Shown: piece by piece, positions 9,090 through 62,100 of the stretch
Numbering within the stretch: the stretch's first letter is position 1
Layout: each line of letters begins with the position of its first letter
DNA from: Eledone cirrhosa
Lineage: Eukaryota
NCBI GenBank assembly: GCA_964016885.1
Contig: OZ024745.1
Coordinates: 88,598,001 to 88,662,000 of the forward strand
DNA length: 64,000 nt
Direction of reading: 5' to 3'
Notes under the pieces: model-generated
The model's database searches: none
The model's input: only the letters and a program-made list of their open reading frames with translations
Told to the model about the DNA's origin: nothing
Translations under genes and position numbers: made by a program

Positions 9090-9258
9090 GACTGCCAATA
9101 TTGGAATTGAACCATCAAGACCGTTGAGGTATGTCATACATCCATTCATGTATTTTATCTGACGAGGTCGTACTGAAAAACAGAACCTTACCTTCGAAAT
9201 ATATATAATAAAATATATATTTCGATTATGTGAAAGTTCTTCATTTATTAATATTTTG

Positions 9259-10068: not shown

Positions 10069-10120
10069 ATAACCTTCGTTTTGTGTAGAAAATTACACTT
10101 TTCATATATATATATATATA

Positions 10121-10854: not shown

Positions 10855-11860
10855 GCGTCAGTCATACAAAAGTGAGTTAGAAGCGAAACAAAATTTAATT
10901 TCGTTTCGTTATTTGTTTTTATCGTTTCCGCTGAACCGGTGCGTACAATGACTCACGTTCTATGCAAATTAGTCTACCCACTACTAATTTTCATAGAAAA
11001 AGCATATAACGATATGTGCTTTTACAATTCTCCAGAGAAGCCGGAAGATGGGTAAATATTGCTGATGAGATGTAATAACATCGAAACTAGTCCAATATTC
11101 CTGTCTGGCCCTCTGGAGAATAGAGGAAATGTGTTTCCTTGAAAACTCGTATGACTCTAAAACCCGGTCCGCCTGTGTGGTTACATACAGACTAGCTGAC
11201 ACTCACTGTAAAGTGTCTAGTGAAAAGCTGAGTACATGTACATATGTATACATGTGTGTATTTATATGCATACTAATACTTCCGTATACATATGTAGATG
11301 TACACTTTAACTTAATTGTTTAAGCGTCAGTCATACAAAAGTGAGTTAGAAGCGAAACGAAATTTAATTTCGTTTCGTTATTTGTTTTTATCGTTTCCGC
11401 TGAACCGGTGCGTACAATGACTCACGTTCTATGAAAATTAGTCTACCCACTACTAATTTTCATAGAAAAAGCATATAACGATATGTGCTTTTACAATTCT
11501 CCAGAGAAGCCGGAAGATGGGTAAATATTGCTGATGAGATGTAATAACATCGAAACTAGTCCAATATTCCTGTCTGGCTCTCTGGAGAATAGAGGAAATG
11601 TGTTTCCTTGAAAACTCGTATGACTCTAAAACCCGGTCCGCCTGTGTGGTTACATACAGACTAGCTGACACTCACTGTAAAGTGTCTAGTGAAAAGCTGA
11701 CTACATGTACATATGTATACATGTGTGTATTTATATGCATACTAATACTTCCGTATACATATGTAGATGTACACTTTAACTTAATTGTTTAAGCGTCAGT
11801 CATACAAAAGTGAGTTAGAAGCGAAACGAAATTTAATTTCGTTTCGTTATTTGTTTTTAT
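10486..11860 (+). mobile_element. 469-bp tandem array (about 2.9 units), one hammerhead per unit; retrozyme-like
   Basis: Units start at 10486, 10955 and 11424; nearly identical; non-coding; flanked by (TA)n. Confidence 0.9.
10586..10630 (+). ncRNA. Type I hammerhead ribozyme (copies at 11055-11099, 11524-11568; inverted at 10345-10389)
   Basis: aatattg-CTGATGA-gatgt-aata-acatc-GAAA-ctag-TC-caatatt; perfect core, 7-bp stem I, palindromic ACTAGT stem III, GUC site at 10621-10623. Confidence 0.93.
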
Positions 11861-11869
11861 ATATATATT

Positions 11870-12358
11870 ATGTCTGTTTAATAACGCTGGTCGAGACATT
11901 TATTCGGTTTGTGGAAAGGAATGTATTCCTTTGTTCAAAATTTGAATGTTGACCGTCAAAAATCGGGGGTTACCTCTCTTTGGGAAAACCATATGACTGC
12001 TAAAACTCACACCCGGCATGGCAGAGAACGGATACCTTTTGAGAAAGGGAAACCTCTGTTCGATATTCCAAAACCAATAACTTGCATACCTCGCAAGTGG
12101 ATTTTGTTGATTTCGTATTCACAGAAACCTAGCAGAGATATTGCATAATATTGTCGCAATGGTCCAGGTTTGTCAAATTATCCTCAGTCGGTTTCCTCGT
12201 GGCTTTGGTCCCTGCGGCTTGCTTACCGGTCTTCAATTTGCAAAGCTGTCTAAAAATAACGTTATAACTCTAAGGTAAAATACCTTATTGAGTGCTTAGC
12301 TGCACATTCCGATTGCATTCGTTAGCTTTCCTGCAGCCAGAGCTTCGATTAGGCTGAA
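11870..12358. repeat. Unclassified interspersed repeat (also at 24036-24585 and 24745-24835)
   Basis: Shared blocks ggggttacctctctttgg, attttgttgatttcg..cagaaacct, atggtccaggtttgt and tacctt..gctgcac. Confidence 0.7.
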
Positions 12359-12461
12359 CTGTCGGGGTCATACATTTTCCTATTACCCACTCTACTACCC
12401 TAAGTATTGAGTACTCTGGTGCGTTATGGTCCATCTGGTTCCTTACCACAACGCCTTCGTT
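12359..12461 (+). mobile_element. Tail-only copy of fold-back family F
   Basis: ctgtcggggtcatac...ccttaccaca..ccttcgttata matches the long arm of 32746-32937 and 43030-43228. Confidence 0.85.
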
Positions 12462-12667: not shown

Positions 12668-15600
12668 TTGTTATACTTTGAGAGGGTCAAGTTGCCAAAA
12701 AGAAACACACGCACCAGTTGCTTTCATTCCAATTTATTATAAACTAAAAAAAAATTTTAAAAACAATCTTCCCCCAATTTTTTTTTTTAATTTATAAATT
12801 TCCGGTTGGTTGGTTGGTTCCACAACCGGACGCTGGTTCATATTTTGTCAAAGTTCTTTCGTCACACATTCTGTGACATCTTCAGTGGCTGGTATTCTTT
12901 TTTGTTTTGTTTTGTACCTCTCCTTTGTTCTGTCCTACGCCATCTTGTTTTTGTGTGTGTTGTCTGCTTAGTTTGCGCATGTCTTACATCCGGGTGGATG
13001 TCTGTGTTTTTATTTGTTTATTTAGATGTTACTGGTTGGTTGGTTGTTTGTTCTATGTGTGTGTGTTTTCATTTTGTCCATAATTGTAAGTTGGGATGTT
13101 ACTATTCCATTCATGGTTTCTATTTAATTTTGGCTGGAGTTCATTTATGTTTATTGCCTCTGTGATTTGTCTAAACATTGCGTCTTTTCTGTGTGTAGAT
13201 TTTATTTTTATTTCTATGTTCTCTAATTTGTCCTTATGTTCTCTTTTAGCATGTTGGTGGAGTATTGATGATTCTTTTCTAACTTGAAGCCCTCGCCAGT
13301 GTTCATTTAACCGTTCTCCTATACTACGAGCTGTCTCCCCTATGTACACTATATTCTTATTTTTACATTATCCTACAGTACATAATATGCTATATACTAT
13401 GTTTCTAGTTTTACAGTTAATATGGGGGCTTAGTTTACAGATTATGCACTTCTTATCTATACAGGGAGGTCTTTGAAAAGGGTATGTATTACTAATAAGT
13501 GTTTTTCTGGAGGTACCTGGTCTTTCTTCTATCTTATTAAGTTTAAGTTTATCTAGGGCCCTTCTACATTTGTAAGCTAATTCACCTCTATGGGTTGTAT
13601 TGATGAACATTACATTCTGGTATTTATTGCTATCATACCATGAGTTTATTCTATTAACCTTATTCCTAGTTCTTACTATTCTGTTCAAAAATTTGATCCT
13701 ATACAAGAGGCAGGTCCCCTTTGTATCATTTACCATGTTTTCCCATTTGGTTCTGGCTCCTCTATATACTCTGATATTATCTCTCTTATTGTAACCAGAG
13801 AACTGCATACGGTGGATGAAGTGTTGTATGTGTCTCTCTAGTTCTTTGGGGTTGCACATGCAGGGCACGTTTCCATCACCCGTACTAAATCCGCAATCAG
13901 TATGTTGATTTTGGTGTGATCCGAAACAACTGAGTTTCGGTGGATCAGATATTTGGAAGTATGGGTTTGGCATAATGGAAATGGGGGATTTGTTTTTTTG
14001 TTATTAATAGTTTCTAACCTGAGCTCTGTGTCTAGTACAGGTAATCGATGCTTGGGGTACTTGCTTGGGTAGTCTATAGTAACTCTAATACTCTGGTGGA
14101 TGGAGTTAGCTATTTGCTTGATGCTTTCCATGGTGTTTGTCCCTAATTCCTGACTGTTCTCTAGTTGGGGCGTTTTTACTACGATGTTTATATCATCAAC
14201 GTAGCGAGAGTACATTATCAGGGTTAAGAGGTTGCTGTCTTCTAATTGTTCTTTAAGTTTATTGTCCCACCATACCATGAATAGGTTAGCTATGTCACCT
14301 GCAATCCTAACACCAATGGCTACTCCCTCCTCTTGGGCATATGCTTTTCCATTAAACTTAAACATATGTTAGTTTTATACTGGCCCCCACCGTTATTTTC
14401 GGAGGTCCTTATGGCTCTGGTCCACCCGTTCCATCTTTCTGTGTGGGTTTTCTTGGCCATTGAGGTAATGGTAGGTGGTCTGCCTCTTGCTGGCCTTGTG
14501 GGGCAGAGGTTGCTAAGGTCATAACTATCTAGATAATCATTACTATAGGTAAGTTTAAGTAGGAGTCCCAGCTCACTGGTATCAATACCACGGAATTCAA
14601 CATTGATCCCATTGATCATTTCTACGCATTTCTCCACAGCAAAATCCACGTCAATGCATGGACATGGGGACACAACATACATACTACCTATTATACAGAC
14701 TGTTACGTCCCTAGATCGGTTATTTTCGCTGATTCTGTTGAGGAGCTCTTGCGTGCTGTCACATATATACGGGGCATTTCAGTGATGGGGCGTATGATCA
14801 GGGAGAGGAAGTAGGAAAGTCTGTAGTTACTAGCAATGTTAGCTCTACAGACTGGCCGTGTTGGTGGTCCTGCGACGGGGTCACTGCTCGTCTTATGGTC
14901 TTTTCAAAGCCCATACAAGGCTGGTACTTCATTGTTCCAGGCAATGGAAGTTGTTGGCAGTCCGTTTATTGGGCTGCATTATGTTTGTCCACATCATCAT
15001 ATGAGCGTTGAGGGTTTTCTCCCTATCCTCATGCTCTTGTGGTGTTACTTCTCTTGTGTTAGTGATGTGGGGTTGCATTGCCTGGATGTATTTTGACAGA
15101 CTGTCAACCGACATTCTCCCAGACTTGTCTGTTGGAAAGCATACAATCTCTTCATTACCTGAGCGCTGCCTGAGCTTACGCAAGCTGTTTGCAGATTTTT
15201 CTCCCAGTTGCTGGGCCTCCATTCTATTTTCCTTCTTGCTATATTGTTCTATAATATTTCTAAGTTTAGATCTAGCGATACTAAATTGTGCTTCTGTTTG
15301 TTCATCGACCTGCGACGGCATTTGCGTGCGTTTGTTAAAAGCAAAAATCGTGGGGTGGACTCGTCGTAGGTCGATGATATATCGGAAGGATTATAAAAAG
15401 TAGAATTCCAGGCTGCTGCTTTATGTGTACTATTGCTGTTGTTATTGTTAGTTGTGTTGTTTTTATTTCTATTTCCACCAGCAGCCTCATGGTTGTTTCT
15501 ATGTCTCTCATTATTACTCCTGTCGCTTTCCTCTGGCTCATTGTTATTATCTACTCTATTTTGTGTGTCTGTGTTATTTTCTCTGTCAGTATCGATAGTC

Positions 15601-15860
15601 TCCCTTCTTCTTTTAATCCCATTACCTTCCCTTACTTCTGTGTTACTGTCATTATCTGTTTTCTGTGTCTGTGTGTCTGTTAAGATTGTGGTGGTGGTGA
15701 GACGCATACGAGGTGTGTGTGTTATTGTTGTTGTTGTGTATTGTTGTTGATGTATGTTGTTGTTGTTGTTGTCGTATCCCTGTATGCTGTTATTATTGTT
15801 GTGTGCGTTGTTGTCGTTATTGTTGTTTGTGTCTGTGTGTCTGTTGTTGTCTCTGAGTCT
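12668..15860 (-). pseudogene. Near full-length decayed Penelope-like element (RT + C-terminal GIY-YIG)
   Basis: CFPTDKSGRMSV (DKG-like), QEEGVAIG..AGDIANLFM, YSRYVDD, LPVLD, CIICK...CKTRNIVYSILC, YIGETARSIGERLNEH...RQITEAINI...LNR; multiple frameshifts and stops; HHR at 12847-12889. Confidence 0.92.
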
Positions 15861-15869
15861 GTGATACAA

Positions 15870-16739
15870 TGTATAGATGTATAGATGTATAGATAAGAAA
15901 TGCATAATCTGTAAACTAAGGCCCCATATTACTGTAAAACTAGAAACATGGTATATAGCATAAGATTTACATAAGATGTACTGAGATAAGTATATAGTGT
16001 ACATAGGTGAGACAGCTAGTAGTATAGGAGAACGGTTAAATGAAAACTGGCGAGAGCTTTAAGATAGAAAAGCATCATCAATACTCCACCAACATGCTAA
16101 AATAGAACATAAGGGCAAATTAGAGAACATGGAAATAAAAATAGAATCTACACACAGAAAAGACGCAATGTTTAGACAAATCACAGAGGCTATAAACATA
16201 ATTGAACTCCAACCAAAATTAAATAGAAAATATGAATGGAATAGCAACATCACAACTTGCAATTAAGGACAAAATGAAAAGACACACGTAGAACAAACAA
16301 TCAACCAGTAACATGTAAATAAACAAATAAATAAACAAATAAAATCTCACACACACACCCGGATGTAACACATGCGCAAACTAAGCACACAACACACACA
16401 CACAAAAACAAGATGGCGTAGGACAGAACAAAGGAGAGGCAGAAAACAAAGAAAAGAATCCCCAGTCACTGAAGAGGTTACATAATGTGTGACGAAAGAA
16501 CTTTGACAAATATATGAACGACCGTCCGGTTGTGGACCCAACCAACCAAAAGGAAATTTTTAAATAAAAAAATAAAAACATTTTAAAAGATTTTTTTGAA
16601 TGTTTTTTATTTATTTATAATAAATTGGAGTGAAACCAAGTGGTGCATGTGTTTTTTCATTGGCAACATGACCCTCCCAAAGTATCGGTTTCAACACACG
16701 GTTTCAGATAAAGTATCTTGCTAAACAAATTCAAAACCG

Positions 16740-16742
<3 letters not shown>
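15870..16742 (+). mobile_element. Inverted copy of the same element's 3' end (GIY-YIG + pLTR + tail), HHR at 16465-16507
   Basis: Reverse-complement homology to 12668-13460; junction has a triplicated tgtataga; gtca-CTGAAGA-g-stem II-GAAAG-aa-CTT-tgac. Confidence 0.9.
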
Positions 16743-19959: not shown

Positions 19960-22660
19960 AACTCCTGATACAGAAAACGGACTTGTTCATTAAAAGGTTG
20001 CGTTGGCGTGCCTTTTATTTCGATAATCAGGTAAAAGCGGAAAATAAATAGGATAAATTCTGGTTTAAAACTGATAATAACCCTGCGAGTAACCCAGCAT
20101 TGCTACCCTTCGAAAACGATGGCTTGGAACTCATATGGAGTATCACATTTCGGAACAGGAGCAATTCCTTCCAGCTGAAGAATAGAATTTGTTCTATTAA
20201 GTATTCTAATGCCATGCACGTCCACTCCGACAAAAATGGCAATCTATATCAAGTGGAGCGCAGTACTTACCATCAACTGCTATATAATGCTGCAACTAAG
20301 GATTACCGGGAAACTAATCGTTAATGACATCAACGATGCTGGGTTGAATATCACCTCTGAATTCAACATCCAGGACCGGACTGAACCTCTGGACCCTATT
20401 TCTCCCCACTTTTACCCTAAAGGATCACAAACACAATTTCGCCAACAACCTCTCTATTCGGCTTATTAACCTACGAAGTCCGATTTAGGTAGACTTAGTA
20501 AAGGATTTTAAATAGAATTATACCTGAAATTAGAAGCTTGGCCTCTCTTGCACTGTAGAAAAATTCTTTCGCGGTGATTGATTGGTTCAATGGCATATGC
20601 AACAAGGACATCAATAATTACTACTCTTTTCGACATCAATAATTACTACTCTTCCATTATTTTACCACTTCTTCTTAGAGCTATCAATTTGGCTAAAACG
20701 CTCACCGTGGTTAAGGATTTCGAAGTTGATGTCATCCCCAATGCCCGTAAGTCGGTGATTAATTTCGACGACTCTGTTTGGATAAAAAAATGTAATAGTA
20801 CCCTATTCGACGTAAATGTGGGCGCCAGCGATTCCGCGGAGATTACAGTTCTTATCGGCCTTTTCCTTCTTTTCTCTATCGAGGAAGAATTCTCCAATGT
20901 GGGCGGTAGTCTGTACCGTGATGACGGTCCTTTGACCATGACAAAGTGCGGTCCACGGGCTTGTGACAAGTTCAGAAAAGAACTCACAGCCTTCTTTAAA
21001 GGCTTCAACCTCTCGATACAGGTTGAGGCTAACCTTTCGGTCGTTAATTACCTCAACGTTACCCTCAATTTGTCGAAGGGCTTGCACTAGCCGTATAAAA
21101 AGCCGAATGACACGCTTAATTACATAAGTAAGCATTCTAACCATTCTGCCAGTATAACCAAGAACCTGGTAAGAAACGTTTGTTTGAGGCTTACTCATCT
21201 ATCTACAAATGAGCATATTTTCACCGACCATTCCACATATTACAATCAAGCCCTTGCTCGGAGTGGATTTGTCGATAAGCTAGCATATACTAAGTATGAG
21301 CATAGACCAAGGAAACATAGATGCCGACGCATTATATGGTATAACCCACCATATAATATGGAGGTGGCCACACCATTAGCTAAGATCTTTCTCTCCCTTA
21401 TTAAGAAGCATTTCCCCTCAGTACATAAATATAATAACATTTTTAGTAGAAATACCATTAAGATTTCTTACTCTACAACTCATAACTTTACACATAACAC
21501 CACTGCTTCAAATTTAGCTAAATTACCTAGCCGTAGGAACGCGTGCAACTCTGTAGCTAGTACTAACTTTAATTGTAGGAATCGGGTTGACTGCCCCCTA
21601 TCCGGGAAATGCCTCTCCAGTAACATTGTCTACAAATGTAAGGTCAAAACACCCACGTCTCGTAGGGCCTACATAGGGTTAACCGCCAATAGATTCAAGC
21701 AGCGTCTTTACATGCACACCCATTCTTTCTTAACTCTTTAAGAAGGATTATGACGTCACTTTCAGCTTATATCTGGAGTCTAAAAGACAACCACACGCAA
21801 TATAGGTTACACTGGGGGATCCTAGCTAAAGCTAGATCGTATAACGGAAATAACAGACCAGGCGATCTTTGCGCCGCTGAAGCCCTGGAAATACTCTACG
21901 CCAATGACCACATCTTAAACAAAAACCCTCAGGCAATTTCGGCTTGTAAACACAAATTGCATAAAACTTTCCTGTATTACAGCACCACATTATACCCTAA
22001 CGGATTGTACAAAGAATACGTGGATAATTTATGTCTTGATGTGGCAGCTAATTATATTTTATGTTTATACCATTACTTATTTGTATAGGTAAGTATATCT
22101 TACCCGTATGTTTTGTGAAGGTACGTATATTTTCTCATACTTACATATGCTTAGAAAGACCCATCATAGACGGAAAAATGTGGTCTGTTATATATATATA
22201 TATATTTTCCTTTTTTTCCCTTTTTTCTTCTTTTTATCCATTTTTCTTTTTTTTTTTTCGAGGTGTATATATTATATTATATTATATATACTGGTACATG
22301 TGTATATGGTTATGTGTATATGTGTATTTTGTGTTTGTGTGAGTAATTGTCTATGCGTGTTTGCACGTATGTAAGGTGTGTATATGTGTACATTGTGTTT
22401 TGATTGGCGTACGTTTGGTTAACATATGTGTATTTACCTGTTCTCCACGATCCACATAATGACGTATTATCTTCGCTTTTTTTCGTTCATTGCCAGGGAA
22501 CATCTCCACGAACCAAAGTATCGTCTTCCTGTTTTCCTTCGGTTGCAACGTTTTTCGAAATATTTACTTCTTCGTTCACAGATTGATTTTTTTTAGTTTC
22601 AGAAAATCCCGTTAAGGGTGAAAGCAGCGACTCTTAAACTTTAATCTGTTATTTTAATAT
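19960..22660 (+). pseudogene. Near full-length decayed Penelope-like element
   Basis: HSDKNGNLY, FDINNYYSSI, FDVNVGASDSAEIT, LYRDDG, IIWYNPPY, NCRNRVDCPLSGKCLSSNIVYKC..AYIGLTANRFKQR, DLCAAEALEI; microsatellite-like 3' region; decayed HHR at 22596-22639. Confidence 0.92.
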
Positions 22661-23498: not shown

Positions 23499-23707
23499 AT
23501 ATAAAAAAAAAGAGAATCAGTGTTGCGACGAATGGAATTTATTGGACATATTACAATCGTTTCTCTGGCGACCAGCTCGAGGCACGATCGATTTCAGAGT
23601 CAGGTTCGATCATCACGTCGGTCGTGTGTCTCGAGCTGGTCACCAGAGAAACATATGTAATATGTCCTATAAATTCCATTCGTCGCAAAACTAATTCTCT
23701 TTTTTTT

Positions 23708-23800: not shown

Positions 23801-23802
<2 letters not shown>

Positions 23803-24018
23803 CGAAGGAAATGTGGTAAGGAACCAGGTGGACCATAACGCACCAAAGTACTCGATACTTGATGTAGTAGAGTGGGTAATAGGAACCAGTAAGACCCCGA
23901 CAGCTGAGCTCAAGCCGTTTCGACGGCTAATTCTGGACTAAAATTAGTCCAGACATTTAGTCCAGAATTAGCCGTCGAAACGGCTTGAGCTCAGCTGTCG
24001 GGGTCTTACTGGTTCCTA
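23801..24018. repeat. Fold-back element, family F
   Basis: Arms 23879-23942 / 23956-24019; long arm extends to 23801; (TA)n on both sides. Confidence 0.92.
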
Positions 24019-24584
24019 TATATATATATATATTCAGTTCTTTCGTTGCTACAGACCACGCGGCTGAATTACCGGTCGCTATCTTAAACTTGCAAACCCC
24101 TTTAAACTGTATGTTATTACTCTGAGTTCTATACCTTGTCGATTACTTCGCTGCACTGCTGAAGGCATTCTTCGGCTTAGCTGCGGCTCGAACTTCGAAT
24201 ATGCTGTACTTTCATTTGTATTACTATCTCCTAGACCTAATGATTAATTGATTAATTTAATTTGACAATTCCATTGAATGGTTAATTATTTATGTTTGTT
24301 TAATTACGGTCTGGTTGAGTGCTTAATTCAGTTTGTGTATGGAAATTTTTCCATTGCTCATAATTTGAACTTGAACGCCGTAACCCGGGGTTACCTCTCT
24401 TTGGCGTAACATGTGCTATCACAACCGGATTTGTGTCAGAACGAAAATCTGTTGGGAAAGTAAGTCCACTGATCGATCTTCCACCAACTTAACTTTTATA
24501 CACGACAAGCGAATTTTGTTGATTTCGGATTTTCAGAAACCTGACTGAGATATTGAATAATTTTGAAGTGATGGTCCAGGTTTG

Positions 24585-25419: not shown

Positions 25420-25737
25420 AGACGCGTGGCTTTGTGGTTAGAGTATTCGATTCATAATCGTATGGTCGTGAGTTCGATTCTCGCCAGCTGTTGTGTTCTA
25501 GAGCAAGCAAATTTATTTCATCTTGCTCCAGTTCACTAAACAGACAAACATGAGATGTTCCTGTTTTTCGAAGGGATAACCTTGTTACATTCTGTGTCAC
25601 GCTGAATCTCCGTGAAACCTACGTTATGTGTACGCGTGTTTGTGGAATGCTCAACCATTCGTACATTAATTTCACGAGAGGTTGTTCAGTTGATCGCAAC
25701 AACTAGAACACTCGTCGTCGTAACCGACGGAGTGCCT
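25420..25737 (+). mobile_element. tRNA-derived SINE (third family)
   Basis: gcgtggctttgtggttagag (A box), gagttcgattc (B box), tgttctagagcaag; short (CTA)n tail. Confidence 0.75.
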
Positions 25738-26258: not shown

Positions 26259-29200
26259 GTTTCATTTATTGGCCGCAAGGGCCGACATATAGGGGAAAAT
26301 ACAAAAGACTGGGACAGTGGGGTTTTACAGAAAAATCGAGTAAACAGTATAAATAGCAATAACAAAGTAACGATAAAAATACAAGAAAAATTCCCCAATA
26401 GGGGGGATGACCGCCGAGGGTTGACTCAGGTACCCCACCAGTCCTGAATGACCCGACGCTTCGAGAGCACCTTGGAATGGCACCCCTCTCCTCCTCAAAT
26501 TTACCCACCTACAGGCGCATGACCAGAGTAGGCCCACTCACACAGGTCATTCTTGACACATTCATCCACCTGTCAGCAAATGTACTGGAGGACAGCACTT
26601 CTCTCTCCACCCTCACCTTCCTTTCCAAGTGAAACTTGACAAAGTTGATGAGGGATTGGCCGAAGAGAAAAGTGTCTATCTTTAGTCCTTTCAACCCCGT
26701 CCAACATACAACCTCTTTCGCTACTGCCACCAGACAGAGGAAAATGGCTTGCCCTTCTTGGCCAAAGGAAGGCGGCGGGTCGATCTTCACTATGGACTCG
26801 GCCGACAGCCGGATCCGTGCTACACGCGATAACAGCTGTTCGACATAACTCCACAAGTCAGTAATGCACGGACACTGGACGAGTGCGTGCAGAACGGTTT
26901 CATCGCTCTGCGCGGCTCTTGGGTAGGTCCGTCTGACAGCACTTCCGTGCCGGTAGAGTTTATCTCGAACCGGCAGTGCCCCCGGTAGCACTGCCATGCT
27001 AGGGCTTTTTGGAAATTATCCATTGTCCCCGGCTGGAAAGTCCTCCGGAACAGACTGGTTAGTTCGACTTCGTGGACGCCCAGAGTGTCTCCGAGTGCGT
27101 CGTCGCACTTGCCCACCACTAATCCTCTATAGAACTCGAGAGTGGAAGTTCCACTGACCGCATTGCCCGCCTGGTAGAGGGCAGTGAGTGCCTGGCAACA
27201 TTCCAGATGCCAGTCACCCAGTCTCGGTCTCTTCTTGACCCAGGAATGCAACTCAGTCAAAGAGACGAACTGCGGAACCGCCCGTCTGACAAACGGCGAC
27301 CACAACTGTTCACCGTTTAGGCAGAATACCTGGAGATTCCGCAGCCTCAGCGTGGGTCTGCGTATCAATAGCCACGGGATGCACAGCCCTCCACGCAGAG
27401 GGTGCTGGCAGCAGATGGACCGCCTCACCAGCGGAACCTGGCCCCCCCACTATAATTTGAAGAGGAGCCGCTCCAAGATGGCGAGGCGCGAACGGGGGCA
27501 AGGGACGACAGTCAGACGGTAGTAGATGACAGACGCGATGTACGCGTTCGCCACCTCCTCCCGACCTTTCAGTGATAGCTTCCTCCCAGCCCATTTGTGG
27601 GTGAGACTGGCTACCCTGCCCGTCACCTCGTCCCAATTCTTATCCACCTGGAGGTCTGACCCGAACCAAACCCCGAGCAACTTTACCCGTCCGTCCGTCC
27701 AGCGCCTAACGACGCTGTTAGACGGCATGGACTTGCCTCTCCAGGTGCCGAGTTTTCCTGGTTAAGTTTTGCTCCCGTCAACCTTTCATATTCCTCCAAT
27801 AAGTTGCCGACCACCTTGATTTGTGAGGTGTCCGACACCATCACGGTGATGTCGTCCGCATAAGCCGACACAGCCTTCCTGCGTGCCGGTTCGAGTGGGA
27901 TGCCCTGCAACAGCTCCAGCTTCCGCAGTAAAGGCTCGAGAGTCAAAACGTACAGAAGGGAGGAGATAGGACACCCTTGACAGACCGATCGAGAGACCTG
28001 AAACGGTTCCGAGAGGTGGCCATTAACTTTGACCACCGAGCGTGTGCCGCTGTGCATTGCAGCAATCCAGCTTCTGAAGACAGGGCCGAAGCCAGCTGCT
28101 TTGAGGACAAACTCCAGATACCGATTGTCGACCCTATCGAATGCTTTCGATAGATCTAAATTGAACAGTGCCCCACCGAAGCCAGGTTTAAACCCTACCC
28201 TGTCTATGATGTATCGCATCAGGTGGAGATGGTCGTGTATGGACCTGGCTGGGATTACACAAGTTTGCGTCTCACCAACCAAATCCTCGACGACAAGCGC
28301 CAATCTCTTTGCTAACACCTTGGCCTAAATCTTAAACTCTGTGTTGTGCAGAGTTATGGGCCTGAAGTTGTCTAAGGTATCCCTCTTGTTCTCGTTTTTC
28401 ATTATCAGCGTCACCACTCCCCCACACACAGAACTGGGAATACTCCCATTCTGCTGCCTGTTGCAGTAGAGTGCTTTGAGGACATCGGAGAACAAGTCTG
28501 GCATATTTACGTAAAACTCATAGGGCAGGCCATCCAAACCGGGTGACTTGCGCCTCATGCAGCTGACAAGGGCGTCCTGAATTTCAGCTGAAGTAATCGG
28601 CCTTTTGCAGCGCTCAGCGTCGCCCGTCGAGATGTGCGGCAATCCGTCAAGGTAGGGACTCAATTCCGCTACTCTCACTAACTCGCTACTCTCCCCGAAC
28701 AACCGCGCAATGTGCTGGCGAAAGGCCTCACACATCAGCTTGGAATCGCTTATCTCGTGTCCGTGTCTGTCCGTCAAAGACCGAATTGTGGTTTTATTAC
28801 CACGCTGCGCCTCTGCCACGCGGGCCCATCGAACAGCTTTGGTTCCTTCGTTTCTCAGCGCACGCGCATTAGCTCTGACAATGCAACCTTCGTATTTCGC
28901 ATTGAAGAAATGGTCTAATGCCATTGAAGAAATGGTCTAATGCACGTCAGTTACAATGCCACTACAAATAGCCTCGTCTAACTTAACTACCAGCTCCCCC
29001 TCCTTTCTATCTATTTTCCTAATGAAGATCCTGTCTATATACGATCTAGATGACTCTATGCGGTTGGTCCACGTCCACGCTGGCACATTGGTGAAATCTA
29101 GTCGATACCTGTCAGACAGTTGGAACTGGCTGATTGGGTGTTTGAGGCTTTTGCACCACCCGCTCCAATCAGCTACTCTCACATAATCCCAGAGTGTGTC

Positions 29201-31350
29201 TAAGATGGCGTTCCAGTCCCCCGCTAATAGTAGAGGGCGAGACGTACCCAGAAATGTTTCCAGGCGCCTAAAGAAGTCCGGTCATCCGGCCCCAGTAGGG
29301 GCGTAGACGGCCAGCAGTCTAAAGTCACCACCTTCGCTACTGCTCACATCCAAGACCACCAACTTACCATCCGGGTCCCGGAAGATCGACCTTACATCGA
29401 GATCCATCCTTTCCTAAACAGCACTGCCACTCCACTTCCAATCCCCGGCCTGATAATAGATGCGAAGATCTGATATCGTCGAAAGTGTGGGATAGTGCGT
29501 GCGTGTCGGAAATCCTGGTCTCGCTGACGGCAATCACATCCATTTCCGGAGACCTGAGGTCGTTTAGTAGGCGACTCTGCTTCCAGGGTGACCCCAGGCC
29601 GCAAACATTTAAACTTCCTACTCTTAATATGGCCATATTGGCAAGCTAAAAGAGAGAGGGAAGGTTTACTTAGGTCGGGTGGTTCGACCTCCATGGTTGG
29701 TGGGGTTTCTTTTGGGAACCCCTTTAAAAGTCTTGATGTGGGATTTACGTTCGGGGTACCCACGCCTTTAGAAAAGCTCTCTCGAATTTCTTTGTAGGGA
29801 TTGTGCGACATTCGCACCAGAAGCAAATCTTCTGGCACGCAAAATGTATTCAATTCAAAAATCTCCCCCTCTGTTTGGATGTCCTCGCTTCGTGCTAAGA
29901 GGGCCATCAATTTATCGTTGGCCCTTCTGACAAGCACGAAGTTTTAAATGTTTTGTTGGTGTGGTTTTATTTGTTTTCGTTTTGGTGACTGTGGTGGTGA
30001 TGGATTTTATGGTGTTGTTTCGGGTATGTCTGTGTTTGTTGTAGGTGTGCTGTCTGCATATTCAGGTGTCTGTGTGTTTATTTGTTCTTGTGTTTGTTTA
30101 GGTTGTTTGCGTTTCGGGGATTGTAGGGGTGGTGTTGATGTTGGTGTTATTGGGGAAGGGTTTGCGTTAGTGATGTCTGTATTTTTTGTTGTGTATGTTT
30201 TTGTGTTTTGTTGGGGCTTTTTTTTTGGTGAGTTTTCTCTTTTGTTTTTTTGGCAGTTTTGCGTTTTCTTTCATCTTCACTGCTGGAAGACAAAGGGTTC
30301 TGTGGCTGTGAGTGTATCTGTGTCTGTGTTTGCATTTATTGTTTGTCTATGTGTATAATTGGAGGGGTAGGGGTGGGATAGCTTTCCTCGTTTTCCCCTT
30401 GGATTGGTTTCGTTGCTGGTGGTGGTCCGACTGTTTTTGATGTTGGTGGGGTTACCCGTGCCATTGTTGGTGTTGTTTTTGGTGGTGGTGCAGCTTTCCG
30501 TACTGACACTGGTGTTTGCAACAAAGGAGGTTTGCGACCCTCTGCATTTCTGAGCTGAGGGCAGAAGGCTTGCAGATGCGTTGCTTCCTCGCAGACGAAA
30601 CAGTGCGGCCTTCCTCCCGGAGCAATACATTGGATTGTTGTCCCGTCCTGCAGGCTGGCAAAATCCGGTATGTTGTTGATGTCTTCTGGTTTCATTTGGA
30701 GAGAAATCTCCAAATCTATTCCGGAGCAGTCTTCTCTCTCTGTTCTTTTGATATCCAGGAGTGTAGTGACTGTCTCCTCCTCGATTACGCATCCCAGGAG
30801 CCACCATATGTTCATTCCTGTTGGGATCCTGGGAATGCGGTCCTTTACTGTCCTTTTTCCCATGTAGGACTGGTGCATGACAATGCGTTCCGTTCTGCAG
30901 GAGGTCACCGAGTGCTTAATAGCAAGGGCCTCGGTTTTGAAAAGTACCGAGATGGTACCGAACTGCTTGGCCCTTGCTTTATACACTATGTCACTTCCGA
31001 TGCACTTCAAAGCAGCCTCGACCTCTGCCTGGCTGGCTAGTTCCACTTTGCGTGTCTGCACTGAAATGCATCGAAAGTATACCGTCCTTATTTGCATGGC
31101 CGTTATTGCCCGTTCTGGGATTGTCAGGTTTGCCCAGGACTTCACCCTTTTAATTAACCTCTACACCTGGGCCAACTGTTCGTCTTTATCGCTATATCAA
31201 TATTCAATAAGCACTTTGTTTTCGCTGCTGCTGCAAAGGTGGTGCTTCTGTTGCTCATGTTGTTGGTGTTCTCGTTCTTGTTGTTGTTGTTGGTGTTGCT
31301 GTTGTTGTTTTGTTTGTTCTTTCTGTTGCCACCGCCATCCATGTTTATAT
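26259..31350 (-). mobile_element. L1/Tx1-type non-LTR retrotransposon, near full length, decayed
   Basis: ORF1 with CFVCEEATHLQAFC knuckle; ORF2 from 29636: GSLNVCGL/VSETR/GDWNA/SYIDRI (APE), KSPGLDGLP/NFRPITL/LDLSKAFDRV/QGCPIS/AYADD (RT), ETVLHALVQC; aataaa near 26270. Confidence 0.95.
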
Positions 31351-32626: not shown

Positions 32627-32745
32627 AATGTTTAACTTGTCATAGTTACGCTCTCTTTTTTTATTTTCTTATTCATTCCTGATTTCGCTTATGTGTGTAT
32701 GTATTTATGTATGTATGTAAGTATGTATGTATATATGTATGTACA

Positions 32746-32937
32746 TAGGAAAAAGTATGATCCCGACGGCAGAGCTCAAGCCGTTTCGACAGCTATTTCT
32801 GTCCAGAAATAGCTGTCGAAACGGTTTGAGCTCTGCCGTCGGGGTCATACTTTGTCCTATTTCCCACTCCACTACCCTAAGTATTGAGTACTCTGGTGCG
32901 TTATGGTCCATCTGGTTCCTTACCACAATTCCTTTAT
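32746..32937. repeat. Fold-back element, family F
   Basis: Apex at about 32801-32804; arms about 56 bp; long arm on the right. Confidence 0.92.
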
Positions 32938-42023: not shown

Positions 42024-42249
42024 AAGGAAAGGATCGATCGACTTTCGTCAAATCGGACCGAGGAAACAATGTTTTCGTCGGTCTTTCGAGTTGCTAGTCC
42101 TATCTATCGGTCGCAAATCCTGGTAGAAGGTCCAACGTGAAATAAAGCGTCTTGCTCAAGGACATAACGTAACGACCGGTCTAGGAATCGAACTCACAAC
42201 CTCAAGATTGCGAATCAAATTCTCTAACCGGCCAGCCACACGCCTTCAG
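42024..42249 (-). mobile_element. Full-length SINE S2
   Basis: tRNA-like head, tgtccttgagcaagac core and 3' part; in (TA)n. Confidence 0.8.
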
Positions 42250-42251
42250 TG

Positions 42252-42555: not shown

Positions 42556-42810
42556 AAATTTTATTATACATATTTCAGAAGTACAATAGTACGTCCTCAT
42601 CAGACAAAATATAATGATATATGACATACCCTGAGATGTTAAATGGTTAAGATTTAATCAAGGTACCTTGATTAAATCTTGACCATTTAACATCTCAGGG
42701 TATGTCAATTTTCATTATATTTTCTCTGATGAGGACGTACTGTTGTACCTCTGAAATATGTATAATAAATTTAATTGATCAAAAGAACATCTATTTTATT
42801 AATATTTGTA

Positions 42811-42815
<5 letters not shown>
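42556..42815. repeat. Fold-back centred on GGTACC (42662-42667) with two outward-facing family A HHRs
   Basis: HHR on minus at 42560-42612 and on plus at 42717-42771 (CTGATGA-ggacgtac-tgtt-gtacctct-GAAA). Confidence 0.92.
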
Positions 42816-43029: not shown

Positions 43030-43033
<4 letters not shown>

Positions 43034-43223
43034 AACAAGTAAGACCCCGCCGGCTGAGCTCAAGCCGTTTCGACAGCTAATTCTGGACGTCCAGAATTAG
43101 CCGTCGAAACGGCTTGAGCTCAGCCGTCGGGGTCTTACTTGTTCCTATTACCCAATCTACTACCCTAAGTATTGAGTACTTTGGTGCGTTATGGTCCACC
43201 TGGTTCCTTACCACATTTCCTTC

Positions 43224-43228
<5 letters not shown>
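43030..43228. repeat. Fold-back element, family F, apex GACGTC (43086-43091)
   Basis: Right arm GAA-ACGGCT-tgagctc-AGCCGT-C-ggggtc is the 3' half of a hammerhead. Confidence 0.92.
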
Positions 43229-43859: not shown

Positions 43860-44048
43860 AAGGGGACCAAAGAATCAGTATTGCGTCATCTACATATTTA
43901 ATTACATATTACATATGTTTCACTGCCGATCAGCTCGAGGAGCGATCAAGTACCGTTCGTTCCTGACTCTGGAATCGGAAGCTCCTCAGATAAGTGTTCT
44001 CACATGTAGACGCACGTCTAATTCGACCCTCATCAGAAGAGGTGTATG

Positions 44049-44489: not shown

Positions 44490-44720
44490 GATAGAGTGGG
44501 CGTGTTGTTTGCTCTGATCAGAACAAACAACACGGACACTCTACCTCCTAATTTAATGGTTGCTTATATTATGGTACGTCAACATTATTTATAAAACTGC
44601 TTATATATTGTATTTTATCTGACGAAGGCATGCCATATTTTTAATATGGTATCCCTGAAATATGTATAATGAAATAAATATGGTTTTATAAATTTAGTTT
44701 CCATTTGTTTAATATCGTAT
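44490..44720 (+). mobile_element. PLE 3' terminus with 5' fold-back (apex TGATCA, about 44515-44520) and family A HHR (44611-44676)
   Basis: agagtg..cgtgttgtttg.tctgatcaga.caaacaacacg..cactct; tattttat-CTGACGA...GAAA-tatgta-TA-atgaaata. Confidence 0.85.
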
Positions 44721-44804
44721 ATCTACTCCAAAAACTTGTCGAGTGCTTTATATCAGTTATAAGATATTTACTTGTTGTAACCCAACAATTTTAAATAAAA
44801 CTTT

Positions 44805-44860
<56 letters not shown>

Positions 44861-45894: not shown

Positions 45895-45961
<67 letters not shown>

Positions 45962-45964
<3 letters not shown>

Positions 45965-46540
45965 ATTAAATAAATGGAAAACTATATTTATAAAACCATA
46001 TTTATTTCATTATATATATTTCGGGGATATCATATTAACAATATGCTATGCCTTCATCAGACAAAATACAATATAAACAGTTTTATAGATAAATATATTC
46101 GACATACCGTAATAAACATCAACTTCATTTGAAGAGGTTCACTCTAGCAGTCTTTTATAAATAAAAGTCTTTTTGTAAATATACTCCAAGTATTTGTCGA
46201 GTGCTTTTATATCAGTTATAAATATTTACTAGTTGTAACCCAACAATTTTAAATATAACTTTACATGTATATATATATATATATATATAAATATATATAT
46301 ATAAAATAAGTCCATAGAATCATTAGATAATATATATATATATATGCAAATATCCCGATGTCTTCCAAAAGTAACGGTTGCATTTTGTAACGGTATGTCA
46401 ATATTTATTTATAAAACTGGTATATATTGTATTTTGTCTGATGAAAGCATACCATAATTTAACATGGTATCTTTGAAATATGTATAATAAAATAGATATG
46501 GTTTTATAAATATAGTTTCCATTTGTTAATTTCGTGTATA
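45962..46540. mobile_element. Outward-facing pair of family A PLE termini (HHR minus 46003-46068; plus 46430-46494)
   Basis: Both have CTGATGA...GAAA cores and the shared tail atatggttttataaatatagtttccattt. Confidence 0.82.
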
Positions 46541-46562: not shown

Positions 46563-46605
<43 letters not shown>

Positions 46606-46609
<4 letters not shown>

Positions 46610-47683
46610 ATACTTTGGGAGGGTCATGTTGCCAATAAGAAACACACGCACCAGATACTTTCACTTCAATTTATTATAATAAATTTATAAACTTATATTT
46701 ATAAATTTCTGGTTGGTTGGTTGGTTCCACAACCAGATAGTTGTTTATATATTGTCATAGTTCTTTCGTCACACACTCTGTGACCTCTTCAGTGACTGGG
46801 GATTCTTTTCTTTGTTTTTGTGCCTCTCCTTTGTTCTGTCCTACGCCATTTTGTTTCTGTTTGTGTGTTGTGTGCTCAGTCTGCGCATGCGCCACATCCG
46901 GGCGTCTGTGTGTGTTTATGTTCATTTATTTATTTGTTTATTTACATGTTACTAGTTGGTTGTTTGTTCTATGTGTGTGTGTGTTTTCATTTTGTCCTTA
47001 ATTGTAAGTTGTGATGTTGCTGTTTCATTCATGTTTTCTATTTAATTTTGGTTGTAATTTTTTTATGTTTATTGCCTCTGTGATTTGTCTAAACATAGAA
47101 ATAAAAATAGAATCTACACACAGAAAAGACGCAAGGTTTAGACAAATCACAGAGGAAATAAACATAAAAGAATTACAACCAAAATTAAATAGAAAACATG
47201 AATGAAACAGCAACATCACAACTTACAATTAAGGACAAAATGAAAACACACACACACATAGAACAAACAACCAACCAGTAACATGTAAATAAACAAATAA
47301 ATAAATGAACATAAACACACACAGACAACCGGATGTGGCACATGCGCAGACTGAGCACACAACACACACACAGAAACAAAATGGCGTAGGACAGAACAAA
47401 GGAGAGGCACAAAAAACAAAGAAAAGAATCCCCAGTCACTGAAGAGGTCACAGAGTGTGTGACGAAAGAACTATGACAATATATAAACAACTATCTGGTT
47501 GTGGAACCAACCAACCAACCAGAAATTTATAAATATAAATTTATAAATTTATTATAATAAATTGAAGTGAAATCAACTGACGCGTGTGTTTCTTATTGGC
47601 AACATGACCCTCCCAAATTATAACAATATCGGTTTCAGCACACGATTTCAGATAAAGAATCTTGCTAAACAAATTCAGAAAGG

Positions 47684-47686
<3 letters not shown>
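46606..47686. mobile_element. 1.1-kb fold-back of two pLTRs of the 12668-16742 PLE family; HHRs at 46754-46796 (-) and 47435-47477 (+)
   Basis: About 490-bp arms, about 40-nt loop near 47095-47135; gtca-CTGAAGA-g-gtcaca..tgtgac-GAAAG-aa-CTA-tgac. Confidence 0.93.
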
Positions 47687-47798: not shown

Positions 47799-47924
47799 CA
47801 AGTATTTATATATGTTTATATATAAGCAAAAGGGATACTTAATTTGTTGGTAATTCAACAAATATATATGTTTATAACTGTTTCCAAACACTCGACTGGT
47901 TTTCTGGAGTATACTATCAATGAT

Positions 47925-48085
47925 ATTAATTAAATGGAAACTATATTTATGAAACCATATTTACTCTATTATATATATTTCAAGGGTACCAAAACTTTGC
48001 TACGCCCTCATCAGATAAAATACAAACTTTGTTTTATAAATATTGACATATCCTTGAAGAAGATCTTAACGGTTCAAGGTTTTCC
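47925..48085 (-). mobile_element. Family A PLE terminus, HHR at 47962-48022
   Basis: tattttat-CTGATGA-gggcgtagcaaagttttggtaccctt-GAAA-tatata-TA. Confidence 0.8.
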
Positions 48086-48623: not shown

Positions 48624-48745
48624 AGATGCCATATGTGTGTACGGGTATGTTTCTATGTATATACTTCTTTGTGTATCCTTTAATCTGCGATTACGTCTTA
48701 TTTCGAGAGCTTTGTCGAATAGAAAACCTTCTAAGGCACATATGC

Positions 48746-50043
<1,298 letters not shown>

Positions 50044-51061
50044 GCGAGCGTGTTTATTTATAAGTGTGTGCATGTATGTATATATATATATTTGGTTGTA
50101 TGTGTTTGTGTATATATAATTATGTGTGTGCGTTCATTTATGTTTATTTTATATTTTTAGATGGATATATGTGTATGTGTTTACGTATATTTTTGTGTGT
50201 ATGCGGCTGTATATATGCTTTAGTATATATGTTTTTTTTTGTGTGTATGGATTTACTTATGTTTTTTTGTATGCGTGTGGTTAGTTCTTATTACGTGCGT
50301 GTGCGCGCACGCATTTGTATACGTATGTACGTAGGTTATGAACCAATGCTCTTTATTGTAGGGTTTTATGTGTATGTATGTGGATGTGTGTGTATATTTG
50401 GTTGTATACATGTTTAATTATACGTGTGTATGTGTAGATGTATTTTTGCACGCATATGTATGTGGATGTGTACGTATGTTTATTTTATATTTTTGTGTAT
50501 ATGTGTATGTATATATATATGTATATGTGTGTATATATATATATATATAGACATACTTTTGTGTATGTGTTTTTATACGTGCGTATGAGTATTTATGCAT
50601 GTTTATGTGTGTGTGTGCGTGTGTATGTATGTGTATATATTTATGTGTATGTACATCTGGTGTATTTGTTTATTTTTAAGTTGTTCTTATCCCTCCCCCC
50701 TCTTACTTATCGTTGTCAACACGTATCCTTTCGTCTTTATTTCGTATTTGACTTTGTATTTTTGTTTTTATTCATTTATTTTTTTATTATTATTACTTCA
50801 TGTATATGTATGTGTATGTACCTATGTCCCTGTCTGTAGACGCATATATGCTTATGTGAAAAAGTATACGTCTAAGTACTTTTCAAGTATATGCGCGTGG
50901 TTGAGTGTGTGTATGTTTATGTTGTGGATATTTATTGTTTAATATATCTTTTTTTTCTCTTCCCCTCTAATTCTTCGCCCGTTTTTTTCACAGCCTCACT
51001 TTCATATTTCTTAAATTTTGTTTTCAAATCCATATTTAATAAAAAACCCACGTTTTTTTAT

Positions 51062-51120
51062 TCATTCTGACGACTGAAAACAGATCTAACATATGCTTTC
51101 AAGAAACCACTGGTAAATGA
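51062..51120 (+). ncRNA. Type I hammerhead motif (family H) at the end of a long microsatellite-like PLE-type 3' region
   Basis: tcatt-CTGACGA-c-tgaaa..tttca-a-GAAACC-act-GGTA-aatga. Confidence 0.82.
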
Positions 51121-51149
51121 TATAATTATCTTATTGTTTATTACATAAC

Positions 51150-51195
<46 letters not shown>

Positions 51196-51312
51196 ATGTA
51201 ATAAACGACATAAGATAATTATATATATATAATTGAAGTATTTCCGTATTGAAGTATTTCAGTAGGAAAGGTAAAGGAAAAGAGAGTGTTCTATGTAGGC
51301 TACAGAGCTTTT

Positions 51313-51446
51313 TAGTTATGTAATAAACAACATAATATAATTATTTCATTTACCAAAGGTTTCACGAAGGCAGACGTCTGTGCCAAGCTTGTCTGCCTTC
51401 CTGAAACTTTGGTAAATGAAATAATTATCTTATGTTGTTTATTACA

Positions 51447-51452
<6 letters not shown>
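51313..51452. repeat. Fold-back of two family H half-hammerheads joined at stem II
   Basis: Arms 51313-51375 / 51391-51452; each has GAAAC..GGTA-aatga and the tail, with no CTGANGA. Confidence 0.9.
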
Positions 51453-51483
<31 letters not shown>

Positions 51484-51624
51484 GTGTGTGTGTGTGTGTA
51501 TTAGCGCCTTAGGAAAAGTCACTTCTTTGATGCCTCTTGTTTACTAGAGATATGGTCAAATTTAGGTACTTCTTTTGTATCAACATAATTATATATATAT
51601 ATGTGTGGGGGGGGGGGGTGAGTG

Positions 51625-59189: not shown

Positions 59190-62100
59190 TCTTCAATGTA
59201 GATATTAGGGATAAGGAACAACAGTTGGCACAGGCATGGAGGTTAATTAATCGAGAGAAGTCATGGGCAAACCTGACCATCCCGAACGGGACAATAGCGG
59301 CCATGCAAAGGATGACGGTGTACTTTCGATGCATTTCAGTACAGACACGCAAAGTGAAATTCGCCAGCCAAGCAGAGGTCGAGGCTGCTTTAAAGTGCAT
59401 CGGAAGTGACATCGAGTATAAAGCAAGGGCCAAGCAGTTCGGTACCATCTCAGTACTGTTCAAAACCGAGGCCTTTACTATTAAGCACTCGGTGACCCCC
59501 TACAGAGCGGAACGCATTATTATGCACCCATCCTACATGGGAAAAAGGACAGTAAAGGTCCGCATTCCCATGATCGCACCAGGAATGAACATATGGTGGC
59601 TCCTGGGATGCGTAATCGAGGAGGGGACAAGAAGTACCCTCCTAGATATCAAAATGATATAGAGAAAAGACTGGTCCGGAATGGATTTGGAGATTCTTCT
59701 CCAAATGAAACCAGAGGACATCACAACATACCGAATTTTGCCCGCCTGCAGGACGGGGCAACAATCCAATTAATCACTGAGGGAAGAAGGCCGCACTGTT
59801 TCGTCTGCGGGGAAGCAACGCATCTGCAAGATTTCTGCCCTGAGCTCAAAAATGCAGAGGGTCGCAAACCTCCTTTGTTGCCAACGCCAGTGTCAGCACG
59901 GAAAGCTGCACCACCAGCACCAAAAACAACACCAACAATGACCCGGGTAACCCCACCAACATCAAAATCAGCCGGACCACCGCCCGCACCGAAACCAATC
60001 CAAGGGGAAAATGAGGAAAGTTCTCCCACTCCCCTACCCCTCCAATTATACACATAGCCAAAACAAGAAACGCACACACGGACACAGATCCTTTGTCTTC
60101 CGGCAGTGAAGATGAAGGAAAATCCAAAAGTGCCAAAAAACAAAAGAGAAAACTCACAAAAAAAAAAAAAGCACCAACAAAACACAAAAACGTACACAAC
60201 AAAAAATACAGACACCACTAACGCAAACCCTTCCCCAATAACATCAACACCTCTCCCACAATCCCCGAAACGCAAACAACCTAAACAAACACAATAACAA
60301 AAAAAACACACAGAAAACCTGAAATTGCAGACAGCACACCTACAACACACGCAGCAGAAGCAACACCAGCAGAACCATCACCATCACAGTAACCAAAACG
60401 AAAACAAATAAAACCACACCAACATAACATTAAAAACTTCGTGCTTGTCAGAAGGGCCAACGATAAATTGATTGCCCTCTTAGCACGAAGCGAGGACATC
60501 CAAACAGAGGGGGAGAGCTTTGAATTGAGCACATATTGCGTGCCAGAAAATTTGCTTCTGGTGCGAATGTCGCTCGATTCCTACAAATAATTCGAAAGAG
60601 ATTTCCTCAAGACGTGGGAACCCCGAACGTGAAACCCACACCGTGACATTTAAAGTGGTTCTCAAAAGAAACCACACCAACCATGAAGGTCGAACAACCT
60701 GACCTTCATAAGACCCCGGGAGGTAAGTAAACCTTCCTTCTCTCTTTTATCTTGCCAATATGGCCATATTAAGAGTAGGAAGTTTAAATGTTCGCGGCCT
60801 GGGGTCACCCTGGAATCAGGGTCTCCTTCTGAACGACCTAAGGTCTCTGGAAATGGATGTGATTGCGGCCAGCGAGACCAGGATTTCCCAACTCGCGCGC
60901 ACTAACCCCCAGTTTCGACGACTATCAGATCTTCGCATCTGTTATCAGGCTGGGAATGGGGGGTGGGCTGTTAGTGCTGTTTAGGAAAGGTCTGGATCTT
61001 GATGTAAGTTCGATCTTATGGGACCCGTACGGTAAGTTGGTGGTCCTGGATATGAGCAGTAGCGAAGGTGGTGCCTTTTGACTGCTGGCCGTCTACGCCC
61101 CTACTGGGGCCGGAGGACTGGACTTCTTTAGGCGCCTGGAAACCTTTCTGGGTACGTATTGCCCTCTATTGTTAGCGGGGTGCTGGAACGGCATCTTAGA
61201 CGCACGCTGGGATTGTGTAGGAGTAGCTGATAGAAGCGGGTGGTGCAAAAGCCTCAAACACCTGATCAGCCAGTTTCAACTGTCTGACGGGTATCGACTA
61301 GCTTTACCCAATGCGCCAGTTTGGAGGTGGACCAATCGCATAGGGTCATCTAGATCGTATATAGACAGGATCTTCATTAGGAAAATATATAGAAATAATG
61401 TAGGCTGCCCAATTATTAAAACGGTCGCCTATTCAGATCACAAATTAATATGTATAGTCGACCTAGATAAAACACGTAGTTTGGGACTGGGTTACTGGAA
61501 GCTGAACATGTCATTTCCGGCACGTAAGGCTTACAGGGATCGAGTCAACAATTTAGTTAAGCAAAAGTTTGCAGGGGCGATCATCAACAACAGTTGTTGT
61601 GGGGGGGGGGGGGGTACTCTCAAATGAGAGATTAGAGTAACTTCGATTGAGTTCAGCAAAGATCTAGGGTTAGAGAAAAATAGAAGGAGGGGGAACTGGT
61701 ATAGAAGTTCTAGCGGCGAGAATGGCATTAGACTATTTCTTCAATGCGAAACACGAACGTTGCAATTTCAGAGCTAAGAAACGTGGGAACGATGAGAAAC
61801 GATGTGCCCGCATGGCGGTCCGCAGCGTGGTAATAAACCACAATTCGGTCTTTGGCGGACCGAGACGGACACGAGAAAAGCGATTCCAAGCTTATGTGTG
61901 AGGCCTTTCGCTCGATTGTTCTTTGAGAGTAGCGAGTCAGAGTGAGTAGCCAATTTCAGTCCCTACCTTGACGGCTTGCCACGCATCTCGACGGTTGAGG
62001 CTGAGCGCTGCGAAAGACCGATAACTTCAGCCGAAATTCAGGACGCCCTTGTCGGCTGCATGAGGCGCAAGTCACTCGGTTTGGATGGCCTGACCTACGA

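Follow-up and report, generated by a model that had tools for sequence, protein, structure and literature searches.

The window analyzed here is a 64-kb stretch of the Eledone cirrhosa genome (contig OZ024745.1), and all positions refer to it. It contains a long hairpin at 51313-51452, the two arms of which (Table 1) are separated by a 15-nt spacer and are complementary in 60 of 63 aligned columns (62-nt arms), differing at three positions, one indel included. When folded as RNA, the hairpin reached a minimum free energy of -84 kcal/mol (z = -15.2), a stability matched by none of 200 shuffled sequences; the hairpin of the original prediction was thus real, and its coordinates held. In each arm, a type I hammerhead ribozyme (HHR) is represented by its 3' half, which is followed by an end segment of 32 nt. 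From the center outwards, the order is a 10-nt stem strand, two bases, GAAAC, helix III, GUA, the 5-nt 3' strand of helix I, and the end segment. The turn had been placed directly upstream of GAAA; the inner 10-bp stem (51366-51375 with 51391-51400) is indeed there, and as a DNA duplex it is stable (-12.1 kcal/mol), but two bases lie between it and GAAAC. Since a motif scan detected no CUGANGA core 5' of helix II in either arm, the hairpin is not a ribozyme.

The inverted insertion as a whole spans 51234-51452, with (TA)n at both outer ends. A 79-nt extension is found on the left side only, and the left arm itself is not bordered by TA. Neither this extension, nor the spacer, nor the sequence upstream of the intact HHR described below has a second copy in the 64-kb window; as the extension is single copy, we consider it a probable tail of a Penelope-like element (PLE) by analogy. 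The inverted repeats of 62 bp adjoining TA could also recall a MITE with terminal inverted repeats, and the best Rfam match was a plant microRNA hairpin (MIR4227, 55.6 bits), but the gathering score of that model is 100 and the microRNA matches are those of generic hairpins. Besides, the repeats are not termini, given that the left arm continues for 79 nt, the spacer is single copy, the left arm lacks flanking TA, and one arm occurs alone, fused to an HHR 5' half. An assembly fold-back artifact is at odds with the three differences between the arms, an indel among them, and with ends located at family-specific sites. We find it scarcely credible that the element is a MITE, a microRNA precursor, or such an artifact.

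Table 1. Features of the hairpin, its relatives, and other elements of the 64-kb window
Feature	Positions	Strand	Remarks
Hairpin, left extension	51234-51312	-	79 nt between the left arm and the following (TA)n; by analogy only, a probable PLE tail on one side
Hairpin, left arm	51313-51375	-	Helix II 3' strand, GAAAC, 3-bp helix III, GUA cleavage triplet, helix I 3' strand, 32-nt end segment
Hairpin, 9-nt insert	51376-51384	+	Similar to nt 1-7 of the right arm, plus a 2-nt stutter; probably a templated insertion
Hairpin, spacer remainder	51385-51390		6 nt, self-complementary; probable natural loop II
Hairpin, right arm	51391-51452	+	Same HHR 3' half, helix III one base shorter; flush with (TA)n at the intact copy's end position
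Microsatellite	51453-51500		(TA)n, then (GT)n; probable insertion target
Intact relative, same family as the hairpin	51062-51120	+	Complete but decayed type I HHR; descriptor match
Intact relative, helix I 5' strand	51062-51066	+	
Intact relative, core	51067-51073	+	
Intact relative, helix II domain	51074-51102	+	
Intact relative, GAAAC	51103-51107	+	
Intact relative, GUA	51113-51115	+	
Intact relative, helix I 3' strand	51116-51120	+	
Intact relative, end segment	51121-51151	+	Stops at the family's short 3' end, then (TA)n
Further family piece	about 51182-51224	-	5' truncated, end segment only; faces the intact copy across (TA)n
Family F fold-backs	23801-24019; 32745-32934; 43032-43227		Spacers of 13, 2, and 0 nt; common 80-nt one-sided tail
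Family F, also	12353-12460		
Decayed PLE	12668-16741	-	Reverse transcriptase (RT) and C-terminal GIY-YIG; reading frame broken by several frameshifts and stops
Second decayed PLE-like ORF	about 20000-21980	+	RT-like and GIY-YIG-like motifs by eye
AT-rich minimal HHR group	5673-5735; 9159-9230; 42560-42815; 44613-44807; 46432-46535; 47826-48045		Related; palindromic helix III, variable helix II; all beside (TA)n
tRNA-like head and other dispersed SINE-like repeats	25426-25485; 3117-3255 and 3743-3881; 42130-42250		tRNA-like head at Rfam 38 bits; some inverted pairs
Decayed LINE-type RT element	26500-31200	-	RVT_1 E 9e-18, zf-RVT; apparent second copy at about 60000-62100
Direct repeat	48740-48960 and 49830-50040		About 200 bp, about 1.1 kb apart, by eye

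The relative at 51062-51120 shows CUGANGA, GAAA, and NUH in type I order, together with helices I (5 bp), II, and III. From GAAAC to the short end it matched each hairpin arm at 45 of 51 columns, which confirms the relationship between this HHR and both arms that had been proposed, apart from one substitution in the left arm within the tail quoted as common. A 23-nt family pattern (up to three mismatches allowed) occurred in only three places in the 64 kb, namely, the two arms and this copy, with none expected from 100 shuffles, and the right arm and the intact copy have their short end at one and the same base. Three matches to the same pattern in bacterial and archaeal genomes were discarded as chance, none of them having a core or GAAAC upstream. 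The fourth piece of the family (about 51182-51224) had been omitted from the original prediction.

The relative had been described as complete, and all its core nucleotides are present, but its 10.1-11.1 pair is a C-A mismatch (so there is no G10.1-C11.1 closing pair) and its helix II has two further internal mismatches and a stability of only -2.3 kcal/mol. The whole motif gave a z score of +0.68, with a free-energy fold different from that of the ribozyme, and we therefore consider this copy decayed. A descriptor of type I HHRs found at least 14 motifs in the 64-kb window versus none in each of 30 shuffles, a lower bound, as several HHR-like motifs detected by a plain motif scan escaped it. 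No hammerhead model was among the 18 Rfam matches within 51030-51470 (E up to 10), and in the whole window only a tRNA-like repeat reached the gathering score, which none of the HHR motifs did. The hairpin's family has a single complete HHR and no tandem unit in the window, unlike a retrozyme, in which complete HHRs would be repeated in two or more tandem units. Upstream of the intact HHR, at 51003-51110, there is a weak trace of a decayed inverted copy centered on an A/T hairpin near 51047-51052 (P = 0.001 with its A-run, 0.057 without it); if real, this partner would be another apex outside helix II, centered upstream of the core.

The central question was whether the apex of the hairpin corresponds to helix II. 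Pairing within the hairpin is no evidence for this, because any fold-back yields a perfect stem from whatever sequence precedes GAAA. The comparison was therefore made with the intact HHR, gap-free and anchored on GAAAC. Among the ten inner pairs, six were identical, two were compensatory (both sides changed, still paired), and the remaining two were mismatches in the intact copy, each having one base in common with the G-C pair of the hairpin. In total, 14 of 20 bases matched (7 of 10 per strand), a value reached by 0.32% of 108,234 background 10-mers (P about 0.003). The hairpin's helix II domain is 39 nt long, or 30 nt after subtracting a 9-nt insert, as against 29 nt for the intact copy. 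In view of this in-register homology, the apex stem is a homologue of helix II and not an identical copy of it. The expected intact HHR carrying the identical stem did not materialize: the hairpin's inner 10-mer occurs nowhere else exactly in the window, and in the sole intact member the stem has diverged and the loop, of 5 nt, is different. The 5' strand of the apex stem matches the natural strand and a copy of the 3' strand equally well (7 of 10 each).

As for the spacer, the first 5 nt of the 9-nt insert are the same as the arm start. A plain local-alignment test for an arm copy was not significant here (P = 0.13); the 5-nt prefix gave P = 0.003, and the prefix plus the terminal palindrome gave P = 0.0001, but these statistics were picked post hoc and are to be discounted. 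The spacers of two other fold-backs carry additional arm-start copies of 15 and 10 nt (P = 0.0004 each), so that the plain test was significant in two of five spacers, with the hairpin and two others negative. An 8-nt unit is also repeated at the 5' junction of a long element in the window. We infer that the 9-nt piece is a templated insert at the junction.

The genome seems to hold many such fold-backs. A scan of the 64 kb gave 25 rows, of which 15 were dropped (microsatellite-built structures, short internal hairpins, and pairs facing across (TA)n) and 10 were tabulated. All 10 had one arm within 11 nt of a microsatellite, while the other was extended by 28 to 109 nt or, once, into a tandem unit. 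The extension is family sequence, as further copies attest, in the family F elements 23879, 32745, and 43029 and in 46605-47685, the last of which is a short palindromic derivative of the PLE at 12668-16741. The short end is also fixed in other families, with non-inverted copies using the same position. Four of the ten junctions have no spacer at all.

That fold-backs turn at stem II as a rule was not supported by this count. Five of them, from three families (23511, 23879, 32745, 43032, and 51313), have lost the core, kept GAAA, and turn within the helix II region; four keep the core, with the apex 3, 61, 105, or 303 nt upstream of it; and one has no HHR. Arms were 48 to 105 nt long in eight cases, and in the hairpin's family the distance between the short end and the helix II window is 49 to 85 nt; length alone would thus place many junctions at helix II. 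Enrichment of fold-backs at helix II is therefore not supported by these 10 cases. A junction at helix II could even be incidental: PLE junctions would simply fall at truncation points, with arms mostly of 50 to 100 nt, and the inversion itself would have made the apex stem. The variety of junction positions fits this, as does the clustering of arms at 48 to 105 nt even in the family without an HHR (88 nt) and the possible inverted copy centered upstream of the core at 51062. However, the hairpin keeps the whole 3' strand of helix II, its domain without the insert is within 1 nt of the intact length, and those junctions that could be tested lie on natural inverted matches. All considered, we regard an incidental position as unlikely.

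Such inverted matches were found at several junctions. The fold-back at 23511-23699 turns on a 7-bp perfect match, the longest in the unit of its intact relative, which joins the core to the interior of the helix II domain and not to helix II proper. Junctions at 46605-47626 and 10122-10853 lie on natural matches of 5 and 4 nt, respectively. In the intact relative of 23511-23699, at about 43870-44010 on the minus strand, the helix II domain measures about 61 nt, and the fold predicted for this copy has the inner part of the domain base-paired with the core, a pairing that would inactivate the ribozyme.

Family F, characterized by a palindromic loop in helix III, has no intact HHR in the window, and its "stem II" is accordingly putative, a point in favor of an incidental position. 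Its three fold-back junctions lie within about 7 nt of each other, and at least two are independent, which speaks against it. Out of 52 arm positions, 0, 3, and 2 were mismatched within elements and 2 to 9 between elements. The arms of this family cluster according to the element they belong to, irrespective of side, so the palindromes did not arise by copying of a single palindromic master, which also speaks against a MITE. Such a master was ruled out for 32745 (six to nine mismatches to the others); for 23879 versus 43029 the sequence test was a tie, and the different apex alone separates them.

The window holds further inverted structures. At 45960-46262, a short-form HHR copy (minus strand) and a piece consisting of tail only meet head to head and have hardly any sequence in common; a small hairpin and a direct repeat mark this junction, which is twin-priming-like. 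The fold-back at 9854-10103 has perfect arms of 88 nt without an HHR, two extra arm-start copies in its spacer, and a one-sided extension of 39 nt. At 10122-11857, a head-to-tail repeat of 469 bp forms about three units, which are 99% identical and all contain a complete HHR. An inverted 5' copy is attached to them at a natural palindrome of 4 nt, and the whole is retrozyme-like and recent.

A connection with PLEs comes from the element at 12668-16741, in which the RT and GIY-YIG domains matched Pfam models with scores below the curated cutoffs. In this PLE, the repeat carries an HHR, the inverted 5' copy contains one as well (16463-16509), and the tail is one-sided; HHR, inverted copy, one-sided tail, and (TA)n target therefore accompany a PLE ORF in the genome of the window. 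The ORF at 20000-21980 had seven full-length relatives at 38 to 43% identity in a protein search and no Pfam match for the piece in the window. For the hairpin's family, no RT or GIY-YIG ORF adjoins any copy within the 64-kb window, such ORFs occurring with another HHR family, and its PLE origin is consequently deduced from anatomy. The hairpin has the 5'-truncated head-to-head copy expected of inverted PLE insertions, and the HHR in a terminal repeat is represented in its family by the intact relative. On these anatomical grounds, the family is probably of PLE origin.

Several published features of PLEs bear on how the hairpin may have formed. Inversion of 5'-truncated copies, a tail on one side only, and insertion into (TA)n are regular features of these elements (PMC8557442), and very short insertions, with a median of 128 bp, have been reported (PMC9977147). 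In vitro, HHR cleavage is dispensable, both target strands are extended, and uncleaved RNA is the dominant template, with two RT start sites delimiting the tail (PMC11167929). Recently active Penelope families are listed in Octopus vulgaris (PMC13282606). The formation of tandem and inverted PLE structures has been named an open question (PMC8557442).

From the anatomy of the element, its family link, the helix II homology, and the pattern of one long and one short side, we propose that 51234-51452 is a doubly 5'-truncated PLE insertion in which two cDNA ends annealed via helix II, with a templated insert of 9 nt; we give this reading an even chance. The target would have been cut in a (TA)n tract, and an uncleaved HHR-bearing RNA (both arms span the cleavage triplet, hence uncleaved) would have been reverse transcribed from both cut ends. 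One cDNA, from a distal start site, would have produced arm plus tail, and the other, from a proximal start site, the arm only, both stopping in the helix II region. Since helix II is formed by complementary strands, the cDNA ends could then have annealed across it (10 to 12 bp), followed by fill-in with a templated slip of 9 nt. The outcome would be a head-to-head palindrome centered on helix II that lost the CUGANGA half, a dead product of retrotransposition.

The main rival is snap-back self-priming, in which a single cDNA primed at the distal site would run past the start of helix II, fold back there, and copy itself, after which the element's endonuclease or repair would cut the second arm back to the short end. 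Arms of unequal length, one long and one short, are expected under this scheme as well, and the extra short arm-start copies in spacers resemble aborted fold-back synthesis. Palindromes at PLE inverted junctions have been reported and interpreted as self-priming (PMC3846280), and the tail has been attributed to endonuclease-mediated resolution (PMC8557442). Both arms of one element share private variants, in the hairpin as well as in family F, a sharing that snap-back accounts for directly and for which two-ended priming needs either repeated use of one RNA or a pair of RNAs with a common source. Nevertheless, snap-back cannot produce 45960-46262, the two parts of which have almost no sequence in common, and this favors two-ended priming. 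In addition, second-strand synthesis would have to stop at the same base as the end of non-inverted copies, whereas a short end fixed in those copies too is what an RT start site would give, and the four junctions without spacer leave no space for a loop. The 64-kb window does not separate the two routes, and we judge snap-back possible, on the improbable side.

A DNA-level inverted duplication after insertion, by template switch or break repair at the fragile (TA)n with helix II serving as the short inverted repeat, is in our opinion very improbable. Short inverted repeats do seed such events (PMC10766183, PMC4689423, PMC11724301), and templated inserts are compatible with break repair, but the duplicated arm stops exactly at the family's short end instead of randomly in the flank, and the one-long-one-short pattern is found in all 10 elements, which belong to several families. 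We conclude that the hairpin exemplifies a general type of inverted junction in PLEs, in which any inverted match present in the template is used, helix II being a good one. It is decidedly doubtful that helix II has a second, non-catalytic role as a built-in annealing or self-priming site that joins cDNA ends at integration. If true, such a role would explain the unusual length of helix II in PLE hammerheads and the frequency of palindromic inverted junctions, as well as the retention of HHRs despite their poor cleavage and the fact that target-primed reverse transcription in vitro does not need them.

Short palindromes of this type record the joining step of PLEs base by base. They also matter for annotation, since such stubs have the appearance of MITEs or microRNA hairpins and escape HHR descriptors. 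Any transcripts of them are predicted to form double-stranded RNA of 60 bp.

In order to put these structures into perspective, they can be compared with several known systems. Twin priming of L1, an element of a different class from PLEs, resembles our proposal in a second reverse transcription from the other target end, joining by microhomology, and occasional templated inserts (PMC11702581). In L1 inversions the overlap is 1 to 10 bp, whereas the cDNAs of the hairpin would overlap over the whole 62-nt arm, which requires strand displacement or two RNAs. Non-LTR retrozymes (PMC7229834; bioRxiv 10.64898/2026.07.22.740005) are, like the hairpin's family, non-coding, carry type I HHRs, and are thought to derive from PLE pseudo-LTRs. 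They differ in their head-to-tail repeats with complete HHRs; in the window the hairpin's family has no tandem unit, while the family at 10488-11857 does. The type I hammerheads of metazoan PLE pseudo-LTRs (PMC4209133) are minimal motifs with a long helix II, some forming opposite-strand pairs 100 to 700 bp apart, and the hairpin's family shares with them a short helix I (5 bp), a long helix II, a short helix III, and dispersed single copies. In contrast to those hammerheads, the hairpin has the 3' half twice, and the intact copy lacks G10.1-C11.1 and has a loop III that is not palindromic.

The closest resemblance in architecture, already known for PLEs, is with the inverted copies of endonuclease PLEs (PMC8557442; PMC3846280), which are likewise head to head, with a junction palindrome, a one-sided extension, and a (TA)n target. 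Like the hairpin, they have no discernible target-site duplication, although here any would be hidden in the microsatellite. The halves of the hairpin are only 62 nt long, without an ORF, and its probable tail of 79 nt exceeds the 30 to 40 bp quoted for these elements. A junction palindrome identified as HHR helix II was not found in searches of the open-access literature. Compared with the junctions described in the available text of those two sources, that of the hairpin is mapped to a defined element of the ribozyme, helix II.
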